This document shows positions 1-64,000 of a DNA stretch of 64,000 nucleotides, one piece after another. The number at the start of each line of letters is the position of its first letter. The stretch's first letter is position 1. Where the stretch lies: NCBI GenBank assembly GCA_032718475.1, contig JAUCBJ010001598.1:62001-126000 (forward strand), written 5' to 3'. Both the position numbers and the translations under genes were made by a program. The notes beneath the pieces are model-generated. The model ran no database searches. It saw only the letters and a list, made by a program, of their open reading frames with translations, and had not been told where the DNA came from. This stretch comes from Nemertoderma westbladi (Eukaryota; Animalia; Xenacoelomorpha).

Positions 1-3000
1 TTCCCAGGCACCCTGTTGAGTCTGTACTATTCTACGCTATCATTTGTTTCCCAGGCACCCCGTTGAGTCTGTCTGTACTATTCTACGCTATCATTTGTTT
101 CCCAGGCACCCCGTTGAGTCTGTACTATTCTACGCTATCATTTGTTTCCCAGGCACCCCGTTGAGTCTACAATTCTACGCTATCATTTGTTTCCCAGGCA
201 CCCCGTTGAGTCTGTACTATTCTACATTATCATTTGTTTCCCAGGCACCCCGTTGAGTCTACTATTCTACATTATCATTTGTTTCCCAGGCACCCCGTTG
301 AGTCTGTACTATTCTACGCTATCATTTGTTTCCCAGGCACCCCGTTGAGTCTGTACTATTCTACGCTATCCTTTGTTTCCCAGACACCCCGTTGAGTCTG
401 TACTATTCTACGCTATCATTTGTTTCCCATGCACCCCGTTGAGTCTACAATTATACGCTATCATTTGTTTCCCAGGCACCCTGTTGAGTCTGTCTGTACT
501 ATTCTACGCTATCATTTGTTTCCCAGACACCCCGTTGAGTCTGTACTATTCTACGCTATCCTTTGTTTCCCAGACACCCCGTTGAGTCTGTACTATTCTA
601 CGCTATCATTTGTTTCCCATGCACCCCGTTGAGTCTACTATTCTACGCTATCATTTGTTTCCCAGGCACTCCGTTGAGTCTGTACTATTCTACGCTGTCA
701 TTTGTTTCCCAGGCACGCCGTTGAGTCTGTACTATTCTACGCTATCATTTGTTTCCCAGGCACCCCGTTGAGTCTGTACTATTCTACGCTATCATTTGTT
801 TCCCAGGCACCCTGTTGAGTCTGTCTGTACTATTCTACGCTACCATTTGTTTCCCAGGCACCCCGTTGAGTCTACAATTCTACGCTATCATTTGTTTCCC
901 AGGCACCCCGTTGAGTCTGTACTATTCTACATTATCATTTGTTTCCCAGGCACCCCGTTGAGTCTACTATTCTACATTATCATTTGTTTCCCAGGCACTC
1001 CGTTGAGTCTGTCTGTACTATTCTACGCTATCATTTGTTTCCCAGGCACCCTGTTGAGTCTGTCTGTACTATTCTACGCTACCATTTGTTTCCCAGGCAC
1101 CCCGTTGAGTCTACAATTCTACGCTATCATTTGTTTCCCAGGCACCCCGTTGAGTCTGTACTATTCTACATTATCATTTGTTTCCCAGGCACCCCGTTGA
1201 GTCTACTATTCTACGCTAGCATTTGTTTCCCAGACACCCCGTTGAGTCTGTACTATTCTACGCTATCCTTTGTTTCCCAGACACCCCGTTGAGTCTGTAC
1301 TATTCTACGCTATCATTTGTTTCCCATGCACCCCGTTGAGTCTACTATTCTACGCTATCATTTGTTTCCCAGGCACTCCGTTGAGTCTGTACTATTCTAC
1401 GCTGTCATTTGTTTCCCAGGCACGCCGTTGAGTCTGTACTATTCTACGCTATCATTTGTTTCCCAGGCACCCTGTTGAGTCTGTCTGTACTATTCTACGC
1501 TACCATTTGTTTCCCAGGTACCCCGTTGAGTCTGTACTATTCTACGCTATCATTTGTTTCCCAGGCACTCCGTTGCGTCTACTATTCTACGCTATCATTT
1601 GTTTCCCAGGCACCCTGTTGAGTCTGTACTATTCTACGCTATCATTTGTTTCCCAGACACCCCGTTGAGTCTGTACTATTCTACGCTATCATTTGTTTCC
1701 CAGGCACTCCGTTGAGTCTACTATTCTACGCTATCATTTGTTTCCCAGGCACCCCGTTGAGTCTACTATTCTACGCTATAATTTGTTTCCCAGGCACCCC
1801 GTTGAGTCTACTATTCTACGCTATCATTTGTTTCCCAGGCACCCCGTTGAGTCTGTACTATTCTACGCTAGCATTTGTTTCCCAGGCACCCCGTTGAGTC
1901 TACTATTCTACGCTATCATTTGTTTCCCAGGCACTCCGTTGAGTCTGTACTATTCTACGCTATCATTTGTTTCCCAGGCACCCCGTTGAGTCTGTACTAT
2001 TCTACGCTATCATTTGTTTCCCAGGCACCCCGTTGAGTCTACTATTCTACGCTATCATTTGTTTCCCAGGCACCCCGTTGAGTCTGTACTATTCTACGCT
2101 AGCATTTGTTTCCCAGGCACCCCGTTGAGTCTACTATTCTACGCTATCATTTGTTTCCCAGGCACTCCGTTGAGTCTGTACTATTCTACGCTGTCATTTG
2201 TTTCCCAGGCACGCCGTTGAGTCTGTACTATTCTACGCTATCATTTGTTTCCCAGGCACCCTGTTGAGTCTGTCTGTACTATTCTACGCTACCATTTGTT
2301 TCCCAGGTACCCCGTTGAGTCTGTACTATTCTACGCTATCATTTGTTTCCCAGGCACTCCGTTGCGTCTACTATTCTACGCTATCATTTGTTTCCCAGGC
2401 ACCCTGTTGAGTCTGTACTATTCTACGCTATCATTTGTTTCCCAGACACCCCGTTGAGTCTGTACTATTCTACGCTATCATTTGTTTCCCAGGCACCCCG
2501 TTGAGTCTACTATTCTACGCTATCATTTGTTTCCCAGGCACCCTGTTGAGTCTACTATTCTACGCTATCATTTGTTTCCCAGGCACCCCGTTGAGTCTGT
2601 ACTATTCTACGCTATCATTTGTTTCCCAGACACCCCGTTGAGTCTGTACTATTCTACGCTATCATTTGTTTCCCAGGTACCCCGTTGAGTCTGTACTATT
2701 CTACGCTATCATTTGTTTCCCAGGCACCCCGTTGAGTCTGTACTATTCTACGCTATCATTTGTTTCCCAGGTACCCCGTTGAGTCTGTACTATTCTACGC
2801 TATCATTTGTTTCCCAGGTACCCCGTTGAGTCTGTACTATTCTACGCTATCATTTGTTTCCCAGACACCCCGTTGAGTCTGTACTATTCTACGCTATCAT
2901 TTGTTTCCCAGGTACCCCGTTGAGTCTGTACTATTCTACGCTATCATTTGTTTCCCAGGCACCCTGTTGAGTCTACTATTCTACGCTATCATTTGTTTCC

Positions 3001-6000
3001 CAGGCACCCCGTTGAGTCTGTACTATTCTACATTATCATTTGTTTCCCAGGCACCCCGTTGAGTCTGTACTATTCTACGCTATCATTTGTTTCCCAGACA
3101 CCCCGTTGAGTCTGTACTATTCTACGCTATCATTTGTTTCCCAGACACCCCGTTGAGTCTGTACTATTATACGCTATCATTTGTTTCCCAGGCACCCTGT
3201 TGAGTCTACTATTCTACGCTATCATTTGTTTCCCAGGCACCCCGTTGAGTCTGTACTATTCTACGCTATCATTTGTTTCCCAGACACCCCGTTGAGTCTG
3301 TACTATTATACGCTATCATTTGTTTCCCAGGCACCCTGTTGAGTCTACTATTCTACGCTATCATTTGTTTCTCAGGCACCCCGTTGAGTCTGTACTATTC
3401 TACGCTATCATTTGTTTCCCAGGCACCCCGTTGAGTCTGTACTATTATACGCTATCATTTGTTTCCCAGGCACCCCGTTGAGTCTACTATTCTACGCTAT
3501 CATTTGTTTCCCATGCACCCCGTTGAGTCTACTATTCTACGCTATCATTTGTTTCCCAGACACCCCGTTGAGTCTGTACTATTATACGCTATCATTTGTT
3601 TCCCAGGCACCCTGTTGAGTCTACTATTCTACGCTATCATTTGTTTCCCAGGCACCCCGTTGAGTCTGTACTATTCTACATTATCATTTGTTTCCCAGGC
3701 ACCCCGTTGAGTCTGTACTATTCTACGCTATCATTTGTTTCCCAGGCACCCTGTTGAGTCTGTACTATTCTACGTTATCATTTTTTTCCCAGGCACCCTG
3801 TTGAGTCTGTCTGTACTATTCTACGCTATCATTTCTTTCCCAGGCACCCTGTTGAGTCTGTACTATTCTACGCTATTATTTGTTTCCCAGGCACCCCGTT
3901 GCGTCTGTCTGTACTATTCTACGCTACCATTTGTTTCCCAGGCACCCCGTTGAGTCTACAATTCTACGCTATCATTTGTTTCCCATGCACCCCGTTGAGT
4001 CTGCCTGTACTATTCTACGCTATCATTTGTTTCCCAGGCACCCTGTTGAGTCTGTACTATTCTACGCTATCATTTGTTTCCCAGGCACCCCGTTGAGTCT
4101 GTCTGTACTATTCTACGCTACCATTTGTTTCCCAGGCACCCCGTTGAGTCTGTACTATTCTACGCTACCATTTGTTTCCCAGGCACCCCGTTGAGTCTGT
4201 ACTATTCTACGCTATCATTTGTTTCCCAGGCACCCCGTTGAGTCTGTACTATTCTACGCTATCATTTGTTTCCCAGGCACCCCGTTGAGTCTGTCTGTAC
4301 TATTCTACGCTATCATTTGTTTCCCAGGCACCCTGTTGAGTCTGTCTGTACTATTCTACGCTATCATTTGTTTCCCAGGCACCCTGTTGAGTCTGTCTGT
4401 ACTATTCTACGCTATCATTTGTTTCCCAGGCACCCCGTTGAGTCTGTACTATTCTACGCTATCATTTGTTTCCCAGGCACCCCGTTGAGTCTGTCTGTAC
4501 TATTCTACGCTATCATTTGTTTCCCAGGCACCCCGTTGAGTCTGTCTGTACTATTCTACGCTATCATTTGTTTCCCAGGCACCCTGTTGAGTCTGTCTGT
4601 ACTATTCTACGCTATCATTTGTTTCCCAGGCACCCCGTTGAGTCTGTACTATTCTACGCTATCATTTGTTTCCCAGGCACCCCGTTGAGTCTGTACTATT
4701 CTACGCTATCATTTGTTTCCCAGGCACCCCGTTGAGTCTACAATTCTACGCTATCATTTGTTTCCCAGACACCCCGTTGAGTCTACAATTCTACGCTATC
4801 ATTTGTTTCCCAGGCACCCCGTTGAGTCTGTCTGTACTATTCTACGCTATCATTTGTTTCCCAGGCACCCTGTTGAGTCTGTCTGTACTATTCTACGCTA
4901 TCATTTGTTTCCCAGGCACCCCGTTGAGTCTGTACTATTCTACGCTATCATTTGTTTCCCAGGCACCCCGTTGAGTCTGTACTATTCTACGCTATCATTT
5001 GTTTCCCAGGCACCCCGTTGAGTCTGTACTATTCTACGCTATCATTTGTTTCCCAGGCACCCCGTTGAGTCTGTACTATTCTACGCTATCATTTGTTTCC
5101 CAGGCACCCCGTTGAGTCTGTCTGTACTATTCTACGCTATCATTTGTTTCCCAGGCACCCTGTTGAGTCTGTCTGTACTATTCTACGCTATCATTTGTTT
5201 CCCAGGCACCCCGTTGAGTCTGTACTATTCTACGCTATTATTTGTTTCCCAGGCACCCCGTTGAGTCTGTACTATTCTACGCTATCATTTGTTTCCCAGG
5301 CACCCCGTTGAGTCTACAATTCTACGCTATCATTTGTTTCCCAGACACCCCGTTGAGTCTACAATTCTACGCTATCATTTGTTTCCCAGGCACCCCGTTG
5401 AGTCTGTCTGTACTATTCTACGCTATCATTTGTTTCCCAGGCACCCCGTTGAGTCTGTACTATTCTACGCTATCACTTGTTTCCCAGGCACCCCGTTGAG
5501 TCTGTACTATTCTACGCTATCATTTGTTTCCCAGGCACCCCGTTGAGTCTGTACTATTCTACGCTATCATTTGTTTCCCAGGCACCCCGTTGAGTCTGTA
5601 CTATTCTACGCTATCATTTGTTTCCCAGGCACCCCGTTGAGTCTGTACTATTCTACGTTAGCATTTGTTTCCCAGGCACCCCGTTGAGTCTGTACTATTC
5701 TACGCTATCATTTGTTTCCCAGGCACCCCGTTGAGTCTGTACTATTCTACGCTATCATTTGTTTCCCAGGCACCCCGTTGAGTCTGTACTATTCTACGTT
5801 AGCATTTGTTTCCCAGGCACCCCGTTGAGTCTGTACTATTCTACGCTATCATTTGTTTCCCAGGCACCCCGTTGAGTCTGTACTATTCTACGCTATCATT
5901 TGTTTCCCAGGCACCCCGTTGAGTCTGTACTATTCTACGTTAGCATTTGTTTCCCAGGCACCCCGTTGAGTCTGTACTATTCTACGCTATCATTTGTTTC

Positions 6001-9000
6001 CCAGGCACCCCGTTGAGTCTGTACTATTCTACGCTATCATTTGTTTCCCAGGTACCCCGTTGAGTCTGTACTATTCTACGCTATCATTTGTTTCCCAGAC
6101 ACCCCGTTGAGTCTGTACTATTCTACGCTATCATTTGTTTCCCAGGCACCCCGTTGAGTCTGTACTATTCTACGCTATCATTTGTTTCCCAGGCACCCCG
6201 TTGAGTCTACAATTCTACGCTATCATTTGTTTCCCAGGCACCCCGTTGAGTCTGCCTGTACTATTCTACGCTATCATTTGTTTCCCAGGCACCCTGTTGA
6301 GTCTGTACTATTCTACGCTATCATTTGTTTCCCAGGCACCCCGTTGAGTCTGTCTGTACTATTCTACGCTATCATTTGTTTCCCAGGCACCCCGTTGAGT
6401 CTGTACTATTCTACGCTATCATTTGTTTCCCAGGCACCCCGTTGAGTCTACAATTCTACGCTATCATTTGTTTCCCAGGCACCCCGTTGAGTCTGTACTA
6501 TTCTACATTATCATTTGTTTCCCAGGCACCCCGTTGAGTCTACTATTCTACATTATCATTTGTTTCCCAGGCACCCCGTTGAGTCTGTACTATTCTACGC
6601 TATCATTTGTTTCCCAGGCACCCCGTTGAGTCTGTACTATTCTACGCTATCCTTTGTTTCCCAGACACCCCGTTGAGTCTGTACTATTCTACGCTATCAT
6701 TTGTTTCCCATGCACCCCGTTGAGTCTACAATTATACGCTATCATTTGTTTCCCAGGCACCCTGTTGAGTCTGTCTGTACTATTCTACGCTATCATTTGT
6801 TTCCCAGACACCCCGTTGAGTCTGTACTATTCTACGCTATCCTTTGTTTCCCAGACACCCCGTTGAGTCTGTACTATTCTACGCTATCATTTGTTTCCCA
6901 TGCACCCCGTTGAGTCTACTATTCTACGCTATCATTTGTTTCCCAGGCACTCCGTTGAGTCTGTACTATTCTACGCTGTCATTTGTTTCCCAGGCACGCC
7001 GTTGAGTCTGTACTATTCTACGCTATCATTTGTTTCCCAGGCACCCCGTTGAGTCTGTACTATTCTACGCTATCATTTGTTTCCCAGGCACCCTGTTGAG
7101 TCTGTCTGTACTATTCTACGCTACCATTTGTTTCCCAGGCACCCCGTTGAGTCTACAATTCTACGCTATCATTTGTTTCCCAGGCACCCCGTTGAGTCTG
7201 TACTATTCTACATTATCATTTGTTTCCCAGGCACCCCGTTGAGTCTACTATTCTACATTATCATTTGTTTCCCAGGCACTCCGTTGAGTCTGTCTGTACT
7301 ATTCTACGCTATCATTTGTTTCCCAGGCACCCTGTTGAGTCTGTCTGTACTATTCTACGCTACCATTTGTTTCCCAGGCACCCCGTTGAGTCTACAATTC
7401 TACGCTATCATTTGTTTCCCAGGCACCCCGTTGAGTCTGTACTATTCTACATTATCATTTGTTTCCCAGGCACCCCGTTGAGTCTACTATTCTACGCTAG
7501 CATTTGTTTCCCAGACACCCCGTTGAGTCTGTACTATTCTACGCTATCCTTTGTTTCCCAGACACCCCGTTGAGTCTGTACTATTCTACGCTATCATTTG
7601 TTTCCCATGCACCCCGTTGAGTCTACTATTCTACGCTATCATTTGTTTCCCAGGCACTCCGTTGAGTCTGTACTATTCTACGCTGTCATTTGTTTCCCAG
7701 GCACGCCGTTGAGTCTGTACTATTCTACGCTATCATTTGTTTCCCAGGCACCCTGTTGAGTCTGTCTGTACTATTCTACGCTACCATTTGTTTCCCAGGT
7801 ACCCCGTTGAGTCTGTACTATTCTACGCTATCATTTGTTTCCCAGGCACTCCGTTGCGTCTACTATTCTACGCTATCATTTGTTTCCCAGGCACCCTGTT
7901 GAGTCTGTACTATTCTACGCTATCATTTGTTTCCCAGACACCCCGTTGAGTCTGTACTATTCTACGCTATCATTTGTTTCCCATGCACCCCGTTGAGTCT
8001 ACTATTCTACGCTATCATTTGTTTCCCATGCACCCCGTTGAGTCTACTATTCTACGCTATCATTTGTTTCCCAGACACCCCGTTGAGTCTGTACTATTAT
8101 ACGCTATCATTTGTTTCCCAGGCACCCCGTTGAGTCTGTCTGTACTATTCTACGCTATCATTTGTTTCCCAGGCACCCTGTTGAGTCTGTCTGTACTATT
8201 CTACGTTATCATTTTTTTCCCAGGCACCCTGTTGAGTCTGTCTGTACTATTCTACGCTACCATTTGTTTCCCAGGCACCCCGTTGAGTCTGTACTATTCT
8301 ACGCTATCATTTGTTTCCCAGGCACCCCGTTGAGTCTACAATTCTACGCTATCATTTGTTTCCCAGGCACCCCGTTGAGTCTGTACTATTCTACATTATC
8401 ATTTGTTTCCCAGGCACCCCGTTGAGTCTGTACTATTCTACGCTATCATTTGTTTCCCAGGCACCCTGTTGAGTCTGTACTATTCTACGTTATCATTTTT
8501 TTCCCAGGCACCCTGTTGAGTCTGTCTGTACTATTCTACGCTACCATTTGTTTCCCAGGCACCCCGTTGAGTCTGTACTATTCTACGCTATCATTTGTTT
8601 CCCAGGCACCCCGTTGAGTCTACAATTCTACGCTATCATTTGTTTCCCAGGCACCCCGTTGAGTCTGTACTATTCTACATTATCATTTGTTTCCCAGGCA
8701 CCCCGTTGAGTCTGTACTATTCTACGCTACCATTTGTTTCCCAGGCACCCCGTTGAGTCTGTACTATTCTACGCTATCATTTGTTTCCCAGGCACCCCGT
8801 TGAGTCTACAATTCTACGCTATCATTTGTTTCCCAGGCACCCTGTTGAGTCTGTACTATTCTACGTTATCATTTTTTTCCCAGGCACCCTGTTGAGTCTG
8901 TCTGTACTATTCTACGCTACCATTTGTTTCCCAGGCACCCCGTTGAGTCTGTACTATTCTACGCTATCATTTGTTTCCCAGGCACCCCGTTGAGTCTGTA

Positions 9001-12000
9001 CTATTCTACGCTATCATTTGTTTCCCAGGCACCCCGTTGAGTCTGTACTATTCTACGCTATCATTTGTTTCCCAGGCACCCCGTTGAGTCTGTACTATTC
9101 TACGCTATCATTTGTTTCCCAGGTACCCCGTTGAGTCTGTACTATTCTACGTTAGCATTTGTTTCCCAGACACCCCGTTGAGTCTGTACTATTCTACGCT
9201 ATCATTTGTTTCCCAGGCACCTCGTTAAGTCTGTACTATTATACGCTATCATTTGTTTCCCAGGCACCCTGTTGAGTCTGTCGGTACTATTCTACGCTAT
9301 CATTTGTTTCCCAGGCACCCCGTTGAGTCTGTACTATTCTACGCTATCATTTGTTTCCCAGGCACCCCGTTGAGTCTGTACTATTCTACGCTATCATTTG
9401 TTTCCCAGGCACCCCGTTGAGTCTGTACTATTCTACGCTATCATTTGTTTCCCAGGCACCCCGTTGAGTCTGTACTATTCTACGCTATCATTTGTTTCCC
9501 ATGCACCCCGTTGAGTCTACTATTCTACGCTATCCTTTGTTTCCCAGGCACCCCGTTGAGTCTACTATTCTACGCTATCATTTGTTTCCCATGCACCCCG
9601 TTGAGTCTACTATTCTACGCTATCATTTGTTTCCCAGACACCCCGTTGAGTCTGTACTATTCTACGCTATCATTTGTTTCCCAGGCACCCCGTTGAGTCT
9701 GTCTGTACTATTCTACGCTATCATTTGTTTCCCAGGCACCTCGTTGAGTCTGTCTGTACTATTCTACGCTATATCATTTGTTTCCCAGGCACCCTGTTGA
9801 GTCTACTATTCTACGCTAGCATTTGTTTCCCAGGCACCCCGTTGAGTCTGTACTATTCTACGTTATCATTTTTTTCCCAGGCACCCTGTTGAGTCTGTCT
9901 GTACTATTCTACGCTACCATTTGTTTCCCAGGCACCCCGTTGAGTCTGTACTATTCTACGCTATCATTTGTTTCCCAGGCACCCCGTTGAGTCTGTACTA
10001 TTCTACGTTAGCATTTGTTTCCCAGACACCCCGTTGATTCTGTACTATTCTACGCTATCATTTGTTTCCCAGGCACCCTGTTGAGTCTACTATTCTACGC
10101 TATCATTTGTTTCCCATGCACCCCGTTGAGTCTACTATTCTACGCTATCATTTGTTTCCCAGGCACTCCGTTGAGTCTGTACTATTCTACGCTATCATTT
10201 GTTTCCCATGCACCCCGTTGAGTCTACTATTCTACGCTATCCTTTGTTTCCCAGACACCCCGTTGAGTCTGTACTATTCTACGCTATCATTTGTTTCCCA
10301 TGCACCCCGTTGAGTCTACTATTCTACGCTATCATTTGTTTCCCAGACACCCCGTTAAGTCTGTACTATTATACGCTATCATTTGTTTCCCAGGCACCCT
10401 GTGGAGTCTGTCGGTACTATTCTACGCTATCATTTGTTTCCCAGGCACCCCGTTGAGTCTACTATTCTACATTATCATTTGTTTCCCAGGCACCCCGTTG
10501 AGTCTGTACTATTCTACGCTATCCTTTGTTTCCCAGACACCCCGTTGAGTCTGTACTATTCTACGCTATCATTTGTTTCCCATGCACCCCGTTGAGTCTA
10601 CTATTCTACGCTATCATTTGTTTCCCAGGCACTCCGTTGAGTCTGTACTATTCTACGCTATCATTTGTTTCCCATGCACCCCGTTGAGTCTACTATTCTA
10701 CGCTATCCTTTGTTTCCCAGACACCCCGTTGAGTCTGTACTATTCTACGCTATCATTTGTTTCCCATGCACCCCGTTGAGTCTACTATTCTACGCTATCA
10801 TTTGTTTCCCAGGCACTCCGTTGAGTCTGTACTATTCTACGCTATCATTTGTTTCCCATGCACCCCGTTGAGTCTACTATTCTACGCTATCCTTTGTTTC
10901 CCAGACACCCCGTTGAGTCTGTACTATTCTACGCTATCATTTGTTTCCCATGCACCCCGTTGAGTCTACTATTCTACGCTATCATTTGTTTCCCAGGCAC
11001 TCCGTTGAGTCTGTACTATTCTACGCTATCATTTGTTTCCCAGGCACCCCGTTGAGTCTGTACTATTCTACGTTAGCATTTGTTTCCCAGGCACCCCGTT
11101 GAGTCTGTACTATTCTACGCTATCATTTGTTTCCCAGACACCCCGTTGAGTCTGTACTATTCTACGCTGTCATTTGTTTCCCAAGCACCCCGTTGAGTCT
11201 ACAATTCTACGCTATCATTTGTTTCCCAGACACCCCGTTGAGTCTACAATTCTACGCTATCATTTGTTTCCCAGGCACCCCGTTGAGTCTGTCTGTACTA
11301 TTCTACGCTATCATTTGTTTCCCAGGCACCCCGTTGAGTCTGTACTATTCTACGCTATCACTTGTTTCCCAGGCACCCCGTTGAGTCTGTACTATTCTAC
11401 GCTATCATTTGTTTCCCAGGCACCCCGTTGAGTCTGTACTATTCTACGCTATCATTTGTTTCCCAGGCACCCCGTTGAGTCTGTACTATTCTACGCTATC
11501 ATTTGTTTCCCAGGCACCCCGTTGAGTCTGTACTATTCTACGTTAGCATTTGTTTCCCAGGCACCCCGTTGAGTCTGTACTATTCTACGCTATCATTTGT
11601 TTCCCAGGCACCCCGTTGAGTCTGTACTATTCTACGCTATCATTTGTTTCCCAGGCACCCCGTTGAGTCTGTACTATTCTACGTTAGCATTTGTTTCCCA
11701 GGCACCCCGTTGAGTCTGTACTATTCTACGCTATCATTTGTTTCCCAGGCACCCCGTTGAGTCTGTACTATTCTACGCTATCATTTGTTTCCCAGGCACC
11801 CCGTTGAGTCTGTACTATTCTACGTTAGCATTTGTTTCCCAGGCACCCCGTTGAGTCTGTACTATTCTACGCTATCATTTGTTTCCCAGGCACCCCGTTG
11901 AGTCTGTACTATTCTACGCTATCATTTGTTTCCCAGGTACCCCGTTGAGTCTGTACTATTCTACGCTATCATTTGTTTCCCAGACACCCCGTTGAGTCTG

Positions 12001-15000
12001 TACTATTCTACGCTATCATTTGTTTCCCAGGCACCCCGTTGAGTCTGTACTATTCTACGCTATCATTTGTTTCCCAGGCACCCCGTTGAGTCTACAATTC
12101 TACGCTATCATTTGTTTCCCAGGCACCCCGTTGAGTCTGCCTGTACTATTCTACGCTATCATTTGTTTCCCAGGCACCCTGTTGAGTCTGTACTATTCTA
12201 CGCTATCATTTGTTTCCCAGGCACCCCGTTGAGTCTGTCTGTACTATTCTACGCTATCATTTGTTTCCCAGGCACCCCGTTGAGTCTGTACTATTCTACG
12301 CTATCATTTGTTTCCCAGGCACCCCGTTGAGTCTACAATTCTACGCTATCATTTGTTTCCCAGGCACCCCGTTGAGTCTGTACTATTCTACATTATCATT
12401 TGTTTCCCAGGCACCCCGTTGAGTCTACTATTCTACATTATCATTTGTTTCCCAGGCACCCCGTTGAGTCTGTACTATTCTACGCTATCATTTGTTTCCC
12501 AGGCACCCCGTTGAGTCTGTACTATTCTACGCTATCCTTTGTTTCCCAGACACCCCGTTGAGTCTGTACTATTCTACGCTATCATTTGTTTCCCATGCAC
12601 CCCGTTGAGTCTACAATTATACGCTATCATTTGTTTCCCAGGCACCCTGTTGAGTCTGTCTGTACTATTCTACGCTATCATTTGTTTCCCAGACACCCCG
12701 TTGAGTCTGTACTATTCTACGCTATCCTTTGTTTCCCAGACACCCCGTTGAGTCTGTACTATTCTACGCTATCATTTGTTTCCCATGCACCCCGTTGAGT
12801 CTACTATTCTACGCTATCATTTGTTTCCCAGGCACTCCGTTGAGTCTGTACTATTCTACGCTGTCATTTGTTTCCCAGGCACGCCGTTGAGTCTGTACTA
12901 TTCTACGCTATCATTTGTTTCCCAGGCACCCCGTTGAGTCTGTACTATTCTACGCTATCATTTGTTTCCCAGGCACCCTGTTGAGTCTGTCTGTACTATT
13001 CTACGCTACCATTTGTTTCCCAGGCACCCCGTTGAGTCTACAATTCTACGCTATCATTTGTTTCCCAGGCACCCCGTTGAGTCTGTACTATTCTACATTA
13101 TCATTTGTTTCCCAGGCACCCCGTTGAGTCTACTATTCTACATTATCATTTGTTTCCCAGGCACTCCGTTGAGTCTGTCTGTACTATTCTACGCTATCAT
13201 TTGTTTCCCAGGCACCCTGTTGAGTCTGTCTGTACTATTCTACGCTACCATTTGTTTCCCAGGCACCCCGTTGAGTCTACAATTCTACGCTATCATTTGT
13301 TTCCCAGGCACCCCGTTGAGTCTGTACTATTCTACATTATCATTTGTTTCCCAGGCACCCCGTTGAGTCTACTATTCTACGCTAGCATTTGTTTCCCAGA
13401 CACCCCGTTGAGTCTGTACTATTCTACGCTATCCTTTGTTTCCCAGACACCCCGTTGAGTCTGTACTATTCTACGCTATCATTTGTTTCCCATGCACCCC
13501 GTTGAGTCTACTATTCTACGCTATCATTTGTTTCCCAGGCACTCCGTTGAGTCTGTACTATTCTACGCTGTCATTTGTTTCCCAGGCACGCCGTTGAGTC
13601 TGTACTATTCTACGCTATCATTTGTTTCCCAGGCACCCTGTTGAGTCTGTCTGTACTATTCTACGCTACCATTTGTTTCCCAGGTACCCCGTTGAGTCTG
13701 TACTATTCTACGCTATCATTTGTTTCCCAGGCACTCCGTTGCGTCTACTATTCTACGCTATCATTTGTTTCCCAGGCACCCTGTTGAGTCTGTACTATTC
13801 TACGCTATCATTTGTTTCCCAGACACCCCGTTGAGTCTGTACTATTCTACGCTATCATTTGTTTCCCATGCACCCCGTTGAGTCTACTATTCTACGCTAT
13901 CATTTGTTTCCCATGCACCCCGTTGAGTCTACTATTCTACGCTATCATTTGTTTCCCAGACACCCCGTTGAGTCTGTACTATTATACGCTATCATTTGTT
14001 TCCCAGGCACCCCGTTGAGTCTGTCTGTACTATTCTACGCTATCATTTGTTTCCCAGGCACCCTGTTGAGTCTGTCTGTACTATTCTACGTTATCATTTT
14101 TTTCCCAGGCACCCTGTTGAGTCTGTCTGTACTATTCTACGCTACCATTTGTTTCCCAGGCACCCCGTTGAGTCTGTACTATTCTACGCTATCATTTGTT
14201 TCCCAGGCACCCCGTTGAGTCTACAATTCTACGCTATCATTTGTTTCCCAGGCACCCCGTTGAGTCTGTACTATTCTACATTATCATTTGTTTCCCAGGC
14301 ACCCCGTTGAGTCTGTACTATTCTACGCTATCATTTGTTTCCCAGGCACCCTGTTGAGTCTGTACTATTCTACGTTATCATTTTTTTCCCAGGCACCCTG
14401 TTGAGTCTGTCTGTACTATTCTACGCTACCATTTGTTTCCCAGGCACCCCGTTGAGTCTGTACTATTCTACGCTATCATTTGTTTCCCAGGCACCCCGTT
14501 GAGTCTACAATTCTACGCTATCATTTGTTTCCCAGGCACCCCGTTGAGTCTGTACTATTCTACATTATCATTTGTTTCCCAGGCACCCCGTTGAGTCTGT
14601 ACTATTCTACGCTACCATTTGTTTCCCAGGCACCCCGTTGAGTCTGTACTATTCTACGCTATCATTTGTTTCCCAGGCACCCCGTTGAGTCTACAATTCT
14701 ACGCTATCATTTGTTTCCCAGGCACCCTGTTGAGTCTGTACTATTCTACGTTATCATTTTTTTCCCAGGCACCCTGTTGAGTCTGTCTGTACTATTCTAC
14801 GCTACCATTTGTTTCCCAGGCACCCCGTTGAGTCTGTACTATTCTACGCTATCATTTGTTTCCCAGGCACCCCGTTGAGTCTGTACTATTCTACGCTATC
14901 ATTTGTTTCCCAGGCACCCCGTTGAGTCTGTACTATTCTACGCTATCATTTGTTTCCCAGGCACCCCGTTGAGTCTGTACTATTCTACGCTATCATTTGT

Positions 15001-18000
15001 TTCCCAGGTACCCCGTTGAGTCTGTACTATTCTACGTTAGCATTTGTTTCCCAGACACCCCGTTGAGTCTGTACTATTCTACGCTATCATTTGTTTCCCA
15101 GGCACCTCGTTAAGTCTGTACTATTATACGCTATCATTTGTTTCCCAGGCACCCTGTTGAGTCTGTCGGTACTATTCTACGCTATCATTTGTTTCCCAGG
15201 CACCCCGTTGAGTCTGTACTATTCTACGCTATCATTTGTTTCCCAGGCACCCCGTTGAGTCTGTACTATTCTACGCTATCATTTGTTTCCCAGGCACCCC
15301 GTTGAGTCTGTACTATTCTACGCTATCATTTGTTTCCCAGGCACCCCGTTGAGTCTGTACTATTCTACGCTATCATTTGTTTCCCATGCACCCCGTTGAG
15401 TCTACTATTCTACGCTATCCTTTGTTTCCCAGGCACCCCGTTGAGTCTACTATTCTACGCTATCATTTGTTTCCCATGCACCCCGTTGAGTCTACTATTC
15501 TACGCTATCATTTGTTTCCCAGACACCCCGTTGAGTCTGTACTATTCTACGCTATCATTTGTTTCCCAGGCACCCCGTTGAGTCTGTCTGTACTATTCTA
15601 CGCTATCATTTGTTTCCCAGGCACCTCGTTGAGTCTGTCTGTACTATTCTACGCTATATCATTTGTTTCCCAGGCACCCTGTTGAGTCTACTATTCTACG
15701 CTAGCATTTGTTTCCCAGGCACCCCGTTGAGTCTGTACTATTCTACGTTATCATTTTTTTCCCAGGCACCCTGTTGAGTCTGTCTGTACTATTCTACGCT
15801 ACCATTTGTTTCCCAGGCACCCCGTTGAGTCTGTACTATTCTACGCTATCATTTGTTTCCCAGGCACCCCGTTGAGTCTGTACTATTCTACGTTAGCATT
15901 TGTTTCCCAGACACCCCGTTGATTCTGTACTATTCTACGCTATCATTTGTTTCCCAGGCACCCTGTTGAGTCTACTATTCTACGCTATCATTTGTTTCCC
16001 AGGCACGCCGTTGAGTCTACTATTCTACGCTATCATTTGTTTCCCAGGCACTCCGTTGAGTCTGTACTATTCTACGCTATCATTTGTTTCCCAGGCACCC
16101 CGTTGAGTCTACTATTCTACGCTATCATTTGTTTCCCAGGCACTCCGTTGAGTCTGTACTATTCTACGCTATCATTTGTTTCCCATGCACCCCGTTGAGT
16201 CTACTATTCTACGCTATCCTTTGTTTCCCAGACACCCCGTTGAGTCTGTACTATTCTACGCTATCATTTGTTTCCCATGCACCCCGTTGAGTCTACTATT
16301 CTACGCTATCATTTGTTTCCCAGACACCCCGTTAAGTCTGTACTATTATACGCTATCATTTGTTTCCCAGGCACCCTGTGGAGTCTGTCGGTACTATTCT
16401 ACGCTATCATTTGTTTCCCAGGCACCCCGTTGAGTCTACTATTCTACATTATCATTTGTTTCCCAGGCACCCCGTTGAGTCTGTACTATTCTACGCTATC
16501 CTTTGTTTCCCAGACACCCCGTTGAGTCTGTACTATTCTACGCTATCATTTGTTTCCCATGCACCCCGTTGAGTCTACTATTCTACGCTATCATTTGTTT
16601 CCCAGGCACTCCGTTGAGTCTGTACTATTCTACGCTATCATTTGTTTCCCATGCACCCCGTTGAGTCTACTATTCTACGCTATCCTTTGTTTCCCAGACA
16701 CCCCGTTGAGTCTGTACTATTCTACGCTATCATTTGTTTCCCATGCACCCCGTTGAGTCTACTATTCTACGCTATCATTTGTTTCCCAGGCACTCCGTTG
16801 AGTCTGTACTATTCTACGCTATCATTTGTTTCCCATGCACCCCGTTGAGTCTACTATTCTACGCTATCCTTTGTTTCCCAGACACCCCGTTGAGTCTGTA
16901 CTATTCTACGCTATCATTTGTTTCCCATGCACCCCGTTGAGTCTACTATTCTACGCTATCATTTGTTTCCCAGGCACTCCGTTGAGTCTGTACTATTCTA
17001 CGCTGTCATTTGTTTCCCAAGCACCCCGTTGAGTCTACTATTCTACATTATCATTTGTTTCCCAGGCACGCCGTTGAGTCTGTACTATTCTACGCTATCA
17101 TTTGTTTCCCAGGCACCCCGTTGAGTCTACTATTCTACGTTATCATTTGTTTCCCAGGCACCCCGTTGAGTCTGTCTGTACTATTCTACGCTATCATTTG
17201 TTTCCCAGGCACTCCGTTGAGTCTGTACTATTCTACGCTGTCATTTGTTTCCCAGGCACCCTGTTGAGTCTGTCTGTACTATTCTACGCTATCATTTGTT
17301 TCCCAGGTACCCCGTTGAGTCTGTACTATTCTACGCTATCATTTGTTTCCCAGGCACTCCGTTGCGTCTACTATTCTACGCTATCATTTGTTTCCCAGGC
17401 ACTCCGTTGAGTCGGTACTATTCTACGCTATCATTTGTTTCCCAGGCACCCCGTTGAGTCTGTACTATTCTACGCTATCATTTGTTTCCCAGGCACCCCG
17501 TTGAGTCTGTACTATTCTACGCTATCATTTGTTTCCCAGGCACCCTGTTGAGTCTGTCTGTACTATTCTACGCTACCATTTGTTTCCCAGGTACCCCGTT
17601 GAGTCTGTACTATTCTACGCTATCATTTGTTTCCCAGGCACCCCGTTGAGTCTACTATTCTACTCTACCATTTGTTTCCCAGGCACCCCGTTGCGTCTAC
17701 TATTCTACGCTATCATTTGTTTCCCAGGCACCCTGTTGAGTCTGTACTATTCTACGCTATCATTTGTTTCCCAGACACCCCGTTGAGTCTGTACTATTCT
17801 ACGCTATCATTTGTTTCCCAGGCACCCCGTTGAGTCTGTACTATTCTACGCTATCATTTGTTTCCCAGGCACCCCGTTGCGTCTACTATTCTACGCTATC
17901 ATTTGTTTCCCAGGCACCTCGTTGAGTCTGTACTATTCTACGCTATCATTTGTTTCCCAGACACCCCGTTGAGTCTGTACTATTCTACGCTATCATTTGT

Positions 18001-43650: not shown

Positions 43651-43676
43651 TGTATTATTTAACTTACATACTACAG

Positions 43677-46699: not shown

Positions 46700-46877
46700 G
46701 TTCGTCCGGTAACTATATCGCACTATGTTACACCGAATGCAGCGTCGGGTCTGATAGATAAACAATAATTGCATTACTAATACCAATAATGTTAAAAAAT
46801 TTATTTTAGTTACCAAGACAAATTTCCGTCTATTCATACTACCCAACAAGTAGTTTTATCTCTACTATTTCCACGTT

Positions 46878-52915: not shown

Positions 52916-53164
52916 CAACCTACGCCGCTGCAATCCTATTCCGTATGTCGGAAGATAAGCCGAACGACTACCGTAAGCGACTGAGCGTAGAGCTATCGAG
53001 CAGTTTAACCCGGGGCGACGAGTGGGGTGGAGACGCGGGTATGGATCAAGGGGGCTTCCCGCCTGGCCCCCCCGAGGAAGGTATGTGGAGTGGGGCGACG
53101 GCTGCCTCTCCAGCCGATACTAAACACCACCACCTACACGGTACACCGCACACACCTGCTTCAG
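52916..53164 (+). CDS. CTNNB1: Beta-catenin coding exon, end of the arm domain and start of the C-terminal tail ([41 protein letters not shown]...); 3' end either 53080 or 53164
   Basis: Matches [33 protein letters not shown]. Acceptor ccatAG at 52914-52915. Two phase-1 donors: G|GTATGT at 53081 and G|GTGAGC at 53165. Confidence 0.93.
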
Positions 53165-54038: not shown

Positions 54039-57000
54039 TCTCATTATCCGATCCAGGCCACTATCATTAACCCATTGTATCTCATTATCCGATCCAGGCC
54101 ACTACCATTAACCCATTGTATCTCATTATCGGATCCAGGCCACTACCATTAGCCCATTGTATCTCATTATCCGATCCAGGCCACTATCATTAACCCATTG
54201 TATCTCATTATCCGATCCAGGCCACTATCATTAACCCATTGTATCTCATTATCCGATCCAGGCCACTACCATTAGCCCATTGTATCTCATTATCCGATCC
54301 AGGCCACTATCATTAGCCCATTGTATCTCATTATCCGATCCAGGCCACTATCATTAACCCATTGTATCTCATTATCCGATCCAGGCCACTATCATTAACC
54401 CATTGTATCTCATTATCCGATCCAGGCCACTATCATTAACCCATTGTATCTCATTATCCGATCCAGGCCACTATCATTAACCCATTGTATCTCATTATCC
54501 GATCCAGGCCACTACCATTAGCCCATTGTATCTCATTATCCGATCCAGGCCACTATCATTAACCCATTGTATCTCATTATCCGATCCAGGCCACTACCAT
54601 TAGCCCATTGTATCTCATTATCCGATCCAGGCCACTACCATTAACCCATAGTATCTCATTATCCGATCCAGGCCACTACCATTAGCCCATTGTATCTCAT
54701 TATCCGATCCAGGCCACTATCATTAACCCATTGTATCTCATTATCCGATCCAGGCCACTACCATTAACCCATTGTATCTCATTATCCGATCCAGGCCACT
54801 ATCATTAACCCATTGTATCTCATTATCCGATCCAGGCCACTACCATTAACCCATTGTATCTCATTATCCGATCCAGGCCACTACCATTAACCCATTGTAT
54901 CTCATTATCCGATCCAGGCCACTATCATTAACCCATTGTATCTCATTATCCGATCCAGGCCACTACCATTAACCCATTGTATCTCATTATCCGATCCAGG
55001 CCACTATCATTAACCCATTGTATCTCATTATCCGATCCAGGCCACTACCATTAACCCATTGTATCTCATTATCCGATCCAGGCCACTACCATTAACCCAT
55101 TGTATCTCATTATCCGATCCAGGCCACTATCATTAACCCATTGTATCTCATTATCCGATCCAGGCCACTACCATTAACCCATTGTATCTCATTATCCGAT
55201 CCAGGCCACTATCATTAACCCATTGTATCTCATTATCCGATCCAGGCCACTACCATTAACCCATTGTATCTCATTATCCGATCCAGGCCACTATCATTAA
55301 CCCATTGTATCTCATTATCCGATCCGTGCCACTACCATTAACCCATTGTATCTCATTATCCGATCCAGGCCACTACCATTAACCCATTGTATCTCATTAT
55401 CCGATCCAGGCCACTACCATTAACCCATTGTATCTCATTATCCGATCCAGGCCACTACCATTAACCCATTGTATCTCATTATCCGATCCAGGCCACTATC
55501 ATTAACCCATTGTATCTCATTATCCGATCCGTGCCACTATCATTAACCCATTGTATCTCATTATCCGATCCAGTCCACGACCATTTACCCGTTGTATCTC
55601 ATTATCCGATCCAGGCCACTATCATTAACCCATTGTATCTCATTATCTGATCCAGGCCACTACCATTAACCCATTGTATCTCATTATCCGATCCAGGCCA
55701 CTATCATTAACCCATTGTATCTCATTATCCGATCCAGGCCACTATCATTAACCCATTGTATCTCATTATCCGATCCAGGCCACTATCATTAACCCATTGT
55801 ATCTCATTATCTGATCCAGGCCACTACCATTAACCCATTGTATCTCATTATCCGATCCAGGCCACTACCATTAACCCATTGTATCTCATTATCCGATCCA
55901 GGCCACTATCATTAACCCATTGTATCTCATTATCCGATCCAGGCCACTATCATTAACCCATTGTATCTCATTATCCGATCCAGTCCACTACCATTTACCC
56001 GTTGTATCTCATTATCCGATCCAGTCCACTACCATTTACCCATTGTATCTCATTATCCGATCCAGTCCACTACCATTTACCCATTGTATCTCATTATCCG
56101 ATCCAGGCCACTACCATTAACCCATTGTATCTCATTATCCGATCCAGGCCACTATCATTAACCCATTGTATCTCATTATCCGATCCGTGCCACTATCATT
56201 AACCCATTGTATCTCATTATCCGATCCAGTCCACTACCATTTACCCGTTGTATCTCATTATCCGATCCAGGCCACTATCATTAACCCATTGTATCTCATT
56301 ATCTGATCCAGGCCACTACCATTAACCCATTGTATCTCATTATCCGATCCAGGCCACTATCATTAACCCATTGTATCTCATTATCCGATCCAGGCCACTA
56401 TCATTAACCCATTGTATCTCATTATCCGATCCAGGCCACTATCATTAACCCATTGTATCTCATTATCTGATCCAGGCCACTACCATTAACCCATTGTATC
56501 TCATTATCCGATCCAGGCCACTACCATTAACCCATTGTATCTCATTATCCGATCCAGGCCACTATCATTAACCCATTGTATCTCATTATCCGATCCAGGC
56601 CACTATCATTAACCCATTGTATCTCATTATCCGATCCAGTCCACTACCATTTACCCGTTGTATCTCATTATCCGATCCAGTCCACTACCATTTACCCATT
56701 GTATCTCATTATCCGATCCAGTCCACTACCATTTACCCATTGTATCTCATTATCCGATCCAGTCCACTACCATTTACCCGTTGTATCTCATTATCCGATC
56801 CAGTCCACTACCATTTACCCATTGTATCTCATTATCCGATCCAGTCCACTACCATTTGCCCATTGTATCTCATTATCCGATCCAGTCCACTACCATTTAC
56901 CCATTGTATCTCATTATCCGATCCAGTCCACTACCATTTACCCATTGTATCTCATTATCCGATCCAGTCCACTACCATTTGCCCATTGTATCTCATTATC

Positions 57001-60000
57001 CGATCCAGTCAACTACCATTAACCCATTGTATCTCATTATCCGATCCAGGCCACTGCCATTAACCCATTGTATCTCATTATCCGATCCGGGCCACTATCA
57101 TTAACCCATTGTATCTCATTATCCGATCCAGGCCACTATCATTAACCCATTGTATCTCATTATCCGATCCAGTCCACTACCATTAACCCACTGTATATCA
57201 TTATCTGATCCAGGCCACTACCATTAACCCATTGTATCTCATTATCCGATCCAGGACACTACCATTTGCCCATTGTATCTCATTATCCGATCCATGTCAC
57301 TACCATTAACCCACTGTATCTCATTATCCGATCCAGGACACTACCATTTGCCCATTGTATCTCATTATCCGATCCAGGCCACTACCATTAACCCATTGTA
57401 TCTCATTATCCGATCCAGGACACTACCATTTGCCCATTGTATCTCATTATCCGATCCATGTCACTACCATTAACCCACTGTATCTCATTATCCGATCCAG
57501 GACACTACCATTAACCCATTGTATCTCATTATCCGATCCAGACCACTACTATTAACCCATTGTATCTCATTATCCGATCCAGACCACTACCATTAACCCA
57601 TTGTATCTCATTATCCGATCCAGACCACTACTATTAACCCATTGTATCTCATTATCCGATCCAGACCACTACTATTAACCCATTGTATCTCATTATCCGA
57701 TCCAGACCACTACCATTAACCCATTGTATCTCATTATCCGATCCAGACCACTACTATTAACCCATTGTATCTCATTATCCGATCCAGTCCACTACCATTT
57801 ACCCGTTGTATCTCATTATCCGATCCAGGCCACTATCATTAACCCATTGTATCTCATTATCTGATCCAGGCCACTACCATTAACCCATTGTATCTCATTA
57901 TCCGATCCAGGCCACTATCATTAACCCATTGTATCTCATTATCCGATCCAGTCCACTACCATTTGCCCATTGTATCTCATTATCCGATCCAGTCCACTAC
58001 CATTTGCCCATTGTATCTCATTATCCGATCCAGTCCACTACCATTTACCCATTGTATCTCATTATCCGATCCAGTCCACTCCCATTTACCCATTGTATCT
58101 CATTATCCGATCCAGTCCACTACCATTTACCCATTGTATCTCATTATCCGATCCAGTCCACTACCATTTGCCCATTGTATCTCATTATCCGATCCAGTCA
58201 ACTACCATTAACCCATTGTATCTCATTATCCGATCCAGGCCACTGCCATTAACCCATTGTATCTCATTATCCGATCCAGGCCACTATCATTAACCCATTG
58301 TATCTCATTATCCGATCCAGGCCACTATCATTAACCCATTGTATCTCATTATCCGATCCAGTCCACTACCATTAACCCACTGTATCTCATTATCTGATCC
58401 AGGCCACTACCATTAACCCATTGTATCTCATTATCCGATCCAGGACACTACCATTTGCCCATTGTATCTCATTATCCGATCCATGTCACTACCATTAACC
58501 CACTGTATCTCATTATCCGATCCAGGACACTACCATTAACCCATTGTATCTCATTATCCGATCCAGACCACTACTATTAACCCATTGTATCTCATTATCC
58601 GATCCAGACCACTACCATTAACCCATTGTATCTCATTATCCGATCCAGACCACTACTATTAACCCATTGTATCTCATTATCCGATCCAGTCCACTACCAT
58701 TTACCCGTTGTATCTCATTATCCGATCCAGGCCACTATCATTAACCCATTGTATCTCATTATCTGATCCAGGCCACTACCATTAACCCATTGTATCTCAT
58801 TATCCGATCCAGGCCACTATCATTAACCCATTGTATCTCATTATCCGATCCAGGCCACTATCATTAACCCATTGTATCTCATTATCAGATCCAGGCCACT
58901 ATCATTAACCCATTGTATCTCATTATCTGATCCAGGCCACTACCATTAACCCATTGTATCTCATTATCCGATCCAGGCCACTACCATTAACCCATTGTAT
59001 CTCATTATCCGATCCAGGCCACTATCATTAACCCATTGTATCTCATTATCCGATCCAGGCCACTATCATTAACCCATTGTATCTCATTATCCGATCCAGT
59101 CCACTACCATTTACCCGTTGTATCTCATTATCCGATCCAGTCCACTACCATTTACCCATTGTATCTCATTATCCGATCCAGTCCACTACCATTTACCCAT
59201 TGTATCTCATTATCCGATCCAGTCCACTACCATTTACCCGTTGTATCTCATTATCCGATCCAGTCCACTACCATTTGCCCATTGTATCTCATTATCCGAT
59301 CCAGTCCACTACCATTTACCCATTGTATCTCATTATCCGATCCAGTCCACTACCATTTACCCATTGTATCTCATTATCCGATCCAGTCCACTACCATTTG
59401 CCCATTGTATCTCATTATCCGATCCAGTCAACTACCATTAACCCATTGTATCTCATTATCCGATCCAGGCCACTGCCATTAACCCATTGTATCTCATTAT
59501 CCGATCCAGGCCACTATCATTAACCCATTGTATCTCATTATCCGATCCAGGCCACTATCATTAACCCATTGTATCTCATTATCCGATCCAGTCCACTACC
59601 ATTAACCCACTGTATCTCATTATCTGATCCAGGCCACTACCATTAACCCATTGTATCTCATTATCCGATCCAGGACACTACCATTTGCCCATTGTATCTC
59701 ATTATCCGATCCATGTCACTACCATTAACCCACTGTATCTCATTATCCGATCCAGGACACTACCATTAACCCATTGTATCTCATTATCCGATCCAGACCA
59801 CTACTATTAACCCATTGTATCTCATTATCCGATCCAGACCACTACCATTAACCCATTGTATCTCATTATCCGATCCAGACCACTACTATTAACCCATTGT
59901 ATCTCATTATCCGATCCATGTCACTATCATTAACCCACTGTATCTCATTATCCGATCCAGGCCACTACCATTAACCCACTGTATCTCATTATCCGATCCA

Positions 60001-63000
60001 GGCCACTACCATTAACCCACTGTATCTCATTATCCGATCCAGGCCACTATCATTAACCCATTGTATCTCATTATCAGATCCAGGCCACTACCATTAACAC
60101 ATTGTATCTCATTATCCGATCCAGACCACTACTATTAACCCATTGTATCTCATTATCCGATCCAGGCCACTACCATTAACCCATTGCATCTCATTATCCG
60201 ATCCAGGCCACTATCATTAACCCATTGTATCTCATTATCCGATCCAGGCCACTACCATTAACCCATTGTATCTCATTATCCGATCCAGGCCACTACTATT
60301 AACCCATTGTATCTCATTATCCGATCCAGGCCACTACCATTAACCCATTGTATCTCATTATCCGATCCAGGACACTACTATTAACCCATTGTATCTCATT
60401 ATCCGATCCAGGCCACTAGCATTAACCCATTGTATCTCATTATCCGATCCAGGCCACTATCATTAACCCATTGTATCTCATTATCCGATCCAGGCCACTA
60501 GCATTAACCCATTGTATCTCATTATCCGATCCAGGCCACTATGATGAACCCATTGTATCTCATTATCCGATCCAGGCCACTAGCATTAACCCATTGTATT
60601 TCATTATCCGATCCAGGCCACTATCATTAACCCATTGTATCTCATTATCCGATCCAGGCCACTAGCATTAACCCATTGTATCTCATTATCCGATCCAGAC
60701 CACTGCCATTAACCCATTGTATCTCATTATCCGATCCAGGCCACTATGATGAACCCATTGTATCTCATTATCCGATCCAGGCCACTACCATTAACCCATT
60801 GTATCTCATTATCCGATCCGTGCCACTATCATTAACCCATTGTATCTCATTATCCGATCCAGGCCACTACCATTAACCCATTGTATCTCATTATCCGATC
60901 CAGGCCACTACCATTAACCCATTGTATCTCATTATCCGATCCAGGCCACTATCATTAACCCATTGTATCTCATTATCCGATCCAGACCACTGCCATTAAC
61001 CCATTGTATCTCATTATCCGATCCAGGCCACTATCATGAACCCATTGTATCTCATTATCCGATCCAGACCACTACCATTAACCCATTGTATCTCATTATC
61101 CAATCCAGGCCACTATCATTAACCCAGTGTATCTCATTATCCGATCCAGGCCACTATCATGAACCCATTGTATCTCATTATCCGATCCAAGCCACTACCA
61201 TTAACCCATTGTATCTCATTATCCGATCCAAGCCACTACCATTAACCCATTGTATCTCATTATCCGATCCAGGCCACTACTATTAACCCATTGTATCTCA
61301 TTATCCGATCCAGACCACTACTATTAATTAACCCATTGTATCTCATTATCCGATCCAAGCCACTACCATTAACCCATTGTATCTCATTATCCGATCCAGG
61401 CCACTACTATTAACCCATTGTATCTCATTATCCGATCCAGACCACTACTATTAATTAACCCATTGTATCTCATTATCCGATCCAGGCCACTACCATTAAC
61501 CCATTGCATCTCATTATCCGACCCACACCACTACCATTTGCCCATTGTATCTCATTATCTGATCCAGACCACTATCATTAACCCATTGTATCTCATTATC
61601 CGATCCAGGCCACTACCATTAACCCATTGTATCTCATTATCCGATCCAGACCACTACCATTAACCCATTGTATCTCATTATCCGATCCAGGCCACTATTA
61701 TTAACCCATTGTATCTCATTATCCGATCCAGACCACTACCATTTAACCCACTGTATCTCATTATCTGATCCAGACCACTATCATTAACCAATTGTATCTC
61801 ATTATCCGATCCAGGCCACTACCATTAACCCATTGTATCTCATTATCCGATCCAGACCACTACCATTAACCCATTGTATCTCATTATCCGATCCAGGCCA
61901 CTATTATTAACCCATTGTATCTCATTATCTGATCCAGGCCACTATCATTAACCCACTGTATCTCATTATCTGATCCAGGCCACTACCATTAACCCATTGT
62001 ATCTCATTATCCGATCCAGGCCACTACCATTTACCCGTTGTATCTCATTATCTGATCCAGGCCACTACCATTAACCCATTGTATCTCATTATCTGATCCA
62101 GGCCACTACCATTAACCCATTGTATCTCATTATCCGATCCAGACCACTACCATTAACCCATTGTATCTCATTATCCGATCCAGGCCACTATTATTAACCC
62201 ATTGTATCTCATTATCTGATCCACGCCACTATCATTAACCCACTGTATCTCATTATCTGATCCAGGCCACTACCATTAACCCATTGTATCTCATTATCCG
62301 ATCCAAGCCACTACCATTAACCCATTGTATCTCATTATCTGATCCAGGCCACTATCCTTAACACACTGTATCTCATTATCTGATCCAGGCCACTACCATT
62401 AACCCATTGTATCTCATTATCCGATCCAGGCCACTACCATTTACCCGTTGTATCTCATTATCTGATCCAAGCCACTACCATTAACCCATTGTATCTCATT
62501 ATCTGATCCAGGCCACTATCATTAACCCACTGTATCTCATTATCTGATCCAGGCCACTACCATTAACCCATTGTATCTCATTATCCGATCCAGACCACTA
62601 CCATTAACCCATTGTATCTCATTATCCGATCCAGGCCACTATTATTAACCCATTGTATCTCATTATCTGATCCAGGCCACTATCATTAACCCACTGTATC
62701 TCATTATCTGATCCAGGCCACTACCATTAACCCATTGTATCTCATTATCCGATCCAGGCCACTACCATTTACCCGTTGTATCTCATTATCTGATCCAGGC
62801 CACTACCATTAACCCATTGTATCTCATTATCTGATCCAGGCCACTACCATTAACCCATTGTATCTCATTATCCGATCCAGACCACTACCATTAACCCATT
62901 GTATCTCATTATCCGATCCAGGCCACTATCATTAACCCATTGTATCTCATTATCTGATCCAGGCCACTACCATTTACCCGTTGTATCTCATTATCTGATC

Positions 63001-64000
63001 CAGGCCACTACCATTAACCCATTGTATCTCATTATCCGATCCAGGCCACTACCATTTACCCGTTGTATCTCATTATCTGATCCAGGCCACTACCATTAAC
63101 CCATTGTATCTCATTATCCGATCCAGGCCACTACCATTAACCCACTGTATCTCATTATCTGATCCAGGCCACTACCATTAACCCATTGTATCTCATTATC
63201 CGATCCAGACCACTACCATTAACCCATTGTATCTCATTATCCGATCCAGGCCACTATTATTAACCCATTGTATCTCATTATCCGATCCAGACCACTACCA
63301 TTTAACCCACTGTATCTCATTATCTGATCCAGACCACTATCATTAACCAATTGTATCTCATTATCCGATCCAGACCACTACCATTAACCCATTGTATCTC
63401 ATTATCCGATCCAGGCCACTATTATTAACCCATTGTATCTCATTATCTGATCCAGGCCACTATCATTAACCCACTGTATCTCATTATCTGATCCAGGCCA
63501 CTACCATTAACCCATTGTATCTCATTATCCGATCCAGGCCACTACCATTTACCCGTTGTATCTCATTATCTGATCCAGGCCACTACCATTAACCCATTGT
63601 ATCTCATTATCTGATCCAGGCCACTACCATTAACCCATTGTATCTCATTATCCGATCCAGACCACTACCATTAACCCATTGTATCTCATTATCCGATCCA
63701 GGCCACTATTATTAACCCATTGTATCTCATTATCTGATCCACGCCACTATCATTAACCCACTGTATCTCATTATCTGATCCAGGCCACTACCATTAACCC
63801 ATTGTATCTCATTATCCGATCCAGGCCACTATTATTAACCCATTGTATCTCATTATCTGATCCACGCCACTATCATTAACCCACTGTATCTCATTATCTG
63901 ATCCAGGCCACTACCATTAACCCATTGTATCTCATTATCCGATCCAAGCCACTACCATTAACCCATTGTATCTCATTATCTGATCCAGGCCACTATCCTT
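54039..64000 (+). repeat. 41-bp satellite, about 240 copies in window, open at the right edge
   Basis: Unit tctcattatccgatccaggccacta(t/c)cattaacccattgta repeats head-to-tail with almost no length variants. Higher-order blocks are offset by 656, 1189 and 1230 bp (16, 29 and 30 monomers). Confidence 0.98.

Follow-up and report, generated by a model that had tools for sequence, protein, structure and literature searches.

Minisatellites that straddle splice junctions have been described in amphioxus under the name of mirages. In the part of PMC3087553 considered here, the repeat units lay on either the donor or the acceptor boundary, splicing was normal, the arrays were unstable in length and the mechanism that generated them was unclear. 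The genes concerned were Adh3 and the globins BflGb6 and BflGb9, to which PGBD5 and troponin C were added by PMC3902484 in the part considered. Donor-side VNTRs of 5-25 copies were reported for human genes, namely F7 IVS7 (37 bp), CBS IVS13, 6-16, LMNB2 and PDGF, in the considered part of PMC1557585. Giant introns composed of tandem repeats rather than transposons were reported for kl-3 and kl-5 of Drosophila in the considered parts of PMC6508621 and PMC11207136; these genes are Y-linked, their introns contain up to megabases of satellite DNA, and those parts do not mention an origin from splice junctions.

The arrays analysed here represented a giant variant of the class already described. 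They were found in the window, a 64-kb stretch of Nemertoderma westbladi DNA, of which tandem arrays made up ~81%. As in the amphioxus genes (PMC3087553, part considered), the repeat unit spanned an exon boundary (47-, 83- and 41-bp arrays), many copies of the AG or GT were kept and splicing was apparently normal. Amphioxus units of 10-160 bp vary in copy number; here the units were 27-83 bp long, and a hint of instability came from relative contig depth. The amphioxus globin arrays reach 3-6 copies, whereas at least 840 and at least 243 copies were counted here, in introns longer than 39 kb and 10 kb, respectively. The human VNTRs in the considered part of PMC1557585 resembled the 83-bp array of this locus, as the authentic donor lies in the first copy and later copies are mostly silent. 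However, they occur on the donor side only, while acceptor arrays were also present here, and CBS and 6-16 also make use of decoys close by, a use which in the present locus could escape the contigs. The likeness to kl-3 and kl-5 was in the very long introns built from tandem repeats. What appeared new was the array size, the hint of a length difference between samples and a pair of duplicated exons, E2a and E2b. A narrow exact-phrase search of open-licence literature found no published genome-wide test of mirages and no array this large.

Nine coding exons of one beta-catenin gene were located on the + strand, in the unique part of the window at 39.5-54.0 kb; all exon and array coordinates below refer to this strand. 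All introns were of the GT..AG type, and the reading frame ran through the exons without a stop, provided that one of the two second exons was chosen. Exon E1 (39525..39726, 202 nt) was defined by the exon model and spliced contigs, E2a (43677..43821, 145 nt, canonical beta-catenin sequence) by the exon model and comparison with homologs, and its diverged paralog E2b (44110..44254, 145 nt) by spliced contigs. E3 (45382..45521) and E4 (45909..46106) were taken from the exon model and agreed with the length sum of one spliced contig, and E5 (46454..46699) was placed by the model, the same contig and a match to solved beta-catenin structures (E = 2e-35). E6 (48009..48173), whose donor was the first 83-bp copy, was seen in two spliced contigs, E7 (48467..48623) in the exon model and a spliced contig, and E8 (52916..53164) was joined in a contig to an exon outside the window. 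A second possible donor of E8 was noted at 53081, in the same phase as the one at 53165; the longer form was used in the contig. The protein was divergent, with identity of E5 not exceeding 79% to the best 120 of 901 matches and ~69% identity over the whole beta-catenin region. In a quick tree (30 of 82 rows) the sequence lay on a long branch and joined no supported group. The lengths of E1 and E2 were those of human CTNNB1 exons 6 and 7. E4 carried ~9 residues (46050-46100) in excess of usual beta-catenin, in an armadillo-repeat loop.

Splicing was read from assembled contigs, for which five (X1-X5) of six listed runs were compared, with X4 and X5 representing two samples from two studies. 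The latter two were on record as 'DNA?' and were taken as transcript-derived, because their contigs skipped GT..AG introns, unlike those of X1 and X2. The comparison of read contigs covered the window outside 40301-47995 and outside the interiors of the long arrays. The length of the X4 contig fitted the sum of E2, E3, E4 and E5 (727 nt). Assembled contigs drop rare splice forms, so minor use of decoys could go unseen.

Tandem arrays were called with TRF over the 64-kb window. The largest was a 47-bp acceptor array (1..39557, 842.9 copies by TRF; at least 840, open at the left window edge). Its unit consisted of the last 14 nt of the intron and the first 33 nt of E1, and the commonest unit (179/839) agreed with the functional junction in 46 of its 47 nt. 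The AG was kept at 769 of 840 anchors, and in both the X4 and X5 contigs the upstream exon was spliced to the last acceptor. Since only 14 nt of intron-derived sequence precedes this acceptor, its branch point probably lies within exon-derived repeat. The nearest decoy acceptor (39480-39524) was in frame, 45 nt upstream, but a TAG variant was present in that copy. Unit lengths of 45 or 51 nt, hence frame-preserving, were observed for 312 of 839 units. In 50 of 839 copies (1-39500) a C>T change created AG/GT, as at recursive splice sites but with a weak-looking donor, and recursive splicing at these copies was considered as something that the sequence might allow.

The 83-bp donor array (48111..48365, 3.1 copies by TRF) had a unit made of the last 63 nt of E6 and the first 20 nt of the intron. 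All three donors were identical, and the two spare ones led to a stop. The first donor was spliced in both X4 and X5, the joint skipping 293 nt with GT..AG ends. The 41-bp array (54039..64000) was open at the right window edge and contained at least 243 copies (TRF 54039-63995, 242.6 copies). Its unit held CAG followed by 8 nt identical to the start of the exon that follows E8 in the X4 contig and is absent from the window. As the same 8 nt follow CAG in the unit and open the next exon, the array was taken as a copy of an acceptor, and it would end at the acceptor of that exon beyond the window. All 243 visible copies were skipped in the X4 contig (one contig from one run). AG stood at the site in 223 of 243 copies and AG/G in 156 of 243, and splicing to a copy would meet a stop after four codons. 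No match to the 41-bp unit was found in metagenome contigs.

The remaining two arrays were more diverged. The 42-bp array with its degenerate tail occupied 42595..43660 (TRF 42595-43485, 21.0 copies), and its regular part stopped ~190 nt before the E2a acceptor. A 15-nt motif of E2a (+4..+18) recurred 18 times with up to 2 mismatches, exclusively in this array and its decayed tail. When the profile of the array was run over 11,902 positions, E2a came first at 15 nt, 11th at 19 nt and 58th at 22 nt. The intron side of the unit did not match the junction (rank 8,758 of 12,213). In the first alignment of unit against junctions the E1 acceptor and the E3 donor scored like E2a, which was singled out only by the 15-nt exon-side test. 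The array is probably an old one derived from an acceptor. The pyrimidine-rich 27-bp array (46893..47992, 41.3 copies by TRF) stopped 10-16 nt before the E6 acceptor. Its consensus lacked an acceptor AG. The unit agreed with the start of E6 at 14 of 19 nt, a score equalled by 24 of 2,000 shuffles and 5 of 793 windows; an origin from that exon head is suggestive only.

It had been stated in the preliminary description that five unrelated arrays abut, overlap or mimic splice sites of one gene. All five did lie in introns of one beta-catenin gene, and the 47-, 83- and 41-bp units spanned junctions; the 42-bp unit agreed with E2a on the exon side but not on the intron side, and the claim was weakest for the 27-bp unit, which had no AG in its consensus and only a weak likeness to E6. 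That the 47- and 83-bp units combine exon sequence with the splice dinucleotide was confirmed by direct comparison of unit and junction. On the basis of such comparisons, the units were shown to derive from splice junctions, directly for 47 and 83 bp and through shorter matches for 41 and 42 bp. The proposed series of copy numbers held for 3, 41, at least 243 and at least 840 copies, with the 42-bp array corrected from 25 to ~21. No motif common to the five unrelated units was found.

The functional copy had been said to be the last in the acceptor array and the first in the donor array, and for the 47- and 83-bp arrays, respectively, both the sequence and the spliced contigs agreed. Overall, spliced contigs indicated use of the genuine sites at three of the five arrays (47, 83 and 41 bp). 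A premature stop was met with all eight decoys tested (6/6 of the nearest 47-bp and 2/2 of the 83-bp copies). The use of this polarity as evidence on the mutational mechanism was rejected. It is forced by geometry, because the remaining exon is adjacent only to the last acceptor copy or the first donor copy, and since the tested alternatives all give a premature stop, polarity cannot separate mutational models.

Intron interiors were said to hold MITEs rather than arrays, and this was borne out in part: two MITE-like elements were recovered, but tandem repeats occurred in the interiors too. The elements, at 41962-42181 and 50052-50434, had target-site duplications of 9 bp and 8 bp, respectively, and imperfect 15-nt terminal inverted repeats. 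They were returned by a looser TIR/TSD scan, which gave 0-1 elements across 20 shuffles, whereas a strict scan returned none. A further inverted pair was noted at 49086-49534, inside a high-copy stretch; depths in the thousands were recorded at 48.6-49.6, 50.8-51.2 and 52.1-52.7 kb. The interior tandem repeats comprised a degenerate 20/69-bp array (44535-44690) and, within the intron between E1 and E2a, a decayed 171-bp tandem pair (41341-41630). The interior of the same intron also contained a 150-bp repeat of 74% identity (41762-42383). Five poly-G/poly-C runs of 20-35 nt were observed in introns (40989, 50069, 50373, 51007 and 52312), two of which faced each other within the element at 50052-50434.

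Mutually exclusive exons can arise by tandem exon duplication. E2a and E2b resembled this class, as both were 145 nt long, homologous and in the same phase, and inclusion of both would shift the frame. They are probably a mutually exclusive pair within the armadillo repeats of beta-catenin. Identical residues were found at 23 of 48 positions, and in 14 of these 23 codons the two exons differed silently, which points to an old divergence with selection acting on both. Mean identity to 101 homologs was 79% for E2a and 55% for E2b. The spliced contigs of X4 and X5 joined E1 to the diverged E2b, and the 727-nt sum left room for exactly one E2 copy in the X4 contig. No E2a-containing transcript was seen in the spliced contigs of X4 and X5, which drop minor forms; its conservation suggests that E2a may be used in some transcripts. 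Narrow protein searches found no E2b-like relative, the best non-artefact matches reaching ~60-70% over part of the exon and being ordinary catenins where inspected. The top match, a sturgeon model that contains a duplication, was set aside as an artefact. Narrow searches of proteins and, by exact phrase, of open-licence literature gave no report of a mutually exclusive pair in beta-catenin. Given how conserved beta-catenin is, an assembled transcript with a diverged copy of a core armadillo-repeat exon is unusual.

The lengths of the two giant arrays were compared between samples by relative depth. For the 47-bp array, the ratio of array contig depth to that of the adjacent unique contig was 1,117 in X1 and 29 in X3, and for the 41-bp bin the relative depth was ~70 in X1 and 8 in X2; contig depth is not copy number, the flank depth was only 3-5 for the 47-bp array, and possibly X1 is itself the source sample. 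Sample S2 was ~39-fold lower than S1 for the 47-bp array and ~9-fold lower for the 41-bp array in relative depth. A nearby dispersed repeat showed the opposite trend to the 47-bp array, being deeper in X3 than in X1. The data hint at a large (~40-fold) polymorphism of array length between samples. Another reading would be that the 47- and 41-bp arrays are real but shorter, and that their giant lengths arose in part by over-expansion during assembly. An exact duplicate of 4,817 bp (at 5300 and 11185, spanning 5300..16001) and an exact block of 1,702 bp present three times (at 1, 6282 and 12167) lie within the first 16 kb of the 47-bp array, and together with the far lower relative depth of S2 (~29 for that array) they would suit such an artefact. 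However, the array contained 122 distinct unit types, the longest exact repeats among those listed were below 500 bp past ~17 kb, and the depth ratio of X1 exceeded 1,000, with the caveat on source sample and depth already given; over-expansion as an explanation of the giant lengths was considered improbable. The exact blocks were spaced by 5,885 and 6,281 bp, and autocorrelation of the array peaked at lags of 125, 133 and 258 units. The multi-kilobase blocks themselves fit either a recent block duplication by unequal exchange or a local over-expansion of the assembly.

It was proposed, with a probability of about 0.6, that the arrays are splice-junction minisatellites produced by ordinary local duplication and minisatellite turnover, with no dedicated targeting of junctions. 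Local duplication, by slippage or repair, would seed each array. Exon definition would favour the single copy that is contiguous with the remaining exon, and mis-spliced products would meet premature stops and be cleared by nonsense-mediated decay, so that the spare copies would be close to neutral. Copy number would then change through unequal exchange and the duplication of blocks, with arrays reaching tens of kilobases, while in older arrays, such as those of 42 and 27 bp, the resemblance to the junction would fade. That the arrays cluster at exon edges may be due to ancestral introns having been short, to a genome prone to repeats and to the window having been picked because it is striking. 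In favour of this origin, a like unit structure, spare copies silent in splicing and unstable lengths were reported for the amphioxus (PMC3087553, PMC3902484) and human (PMC1557585) genes. What speaks against ordinary turnover is that all five large arrays are linked to junctions, when those in the interiors are small and decayed. This pattern would instead be expected if tandem duplications arise preferentially at exon-intron boundaries in this lineage, through a putative mutational bias that might stem from breaks coupled to splicing or transcription, from the edges of nucleosomes or from recombination where exons are richer in GC. Exon sequence was present in four of the five large arrays and the fifth abutted an acceptor. 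Under a null of random seeding in the present collapsed introns this gave P = 1.6e-4 (4 of 5 arrays) or 1.8e-3 (4 of 7), the count of four including the 42-bp array, for which derivation from a junction is less certain, and the values referring to a single locus in a window picked for being striking. In a sixth duplication an entire exon was copied (E2a/E2b), and in amphioxus the generating mechanism was considered unclear and possibly general in cephalochordates (PMC3087553, part considered). On the other hand, P rose to 0.012 (4 of 5) and 0.086 (4 of 7) when short ancestral introns of 350 nt were assumed, tandem repeats were present in intron interiors too, and the single locus was selected post hoc out of a very large scan. 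The locus suggests a junction bias without establishing it, and such a bias in this lineage was judged doubtful.

The alternative offered in the preliminary description, that junction-spanning duplications are simply those which selection tolerates, failed as a sole explanation: intron interiors should tolerate duplications no less well, so tolerance cannot by itself make arrays more frequent at junctions than there. Selection could also act by keeping the arrays for the tuning of splicing or timing, for example if the 42-bp array lowered the use of E2a to the benefit of E2b, or if long introns delayed the output of beta-catenin. The absence of E2a, which lies behind that array, from both spliced contigs would agree with such a role. 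However, the apparent ~40-fold difference in length between samples suits neutrality better, and the five unrelated units had no common motif that we found; maintenance by selection was regarded as very improbable. We retained ordinary duplication and turnover as the preferred origin of the arrays. A more far-reaching version of the junction bias, in which a genome-wide process seeds duplications at junctions and so creates hypervariable introns of tens of kilobases in an essential developmental gene, with one acceptor used among more than 700 intact ones, was thought unlikely.

Irrespective of how the arrays arose, this intron, 39 kb or more in length and composed almost entirely of intact acceptor copies, lends itself to testing how a 3' splice site is chosen. 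Because the last of the 47-bp copies is used, scanning for the first AG is insufficient as an explanation, and exon definition can account for the choice. If individuals differ ~40-fold in the length of the array, the effect of decoy number on splicing fidelity would be directly measurable.
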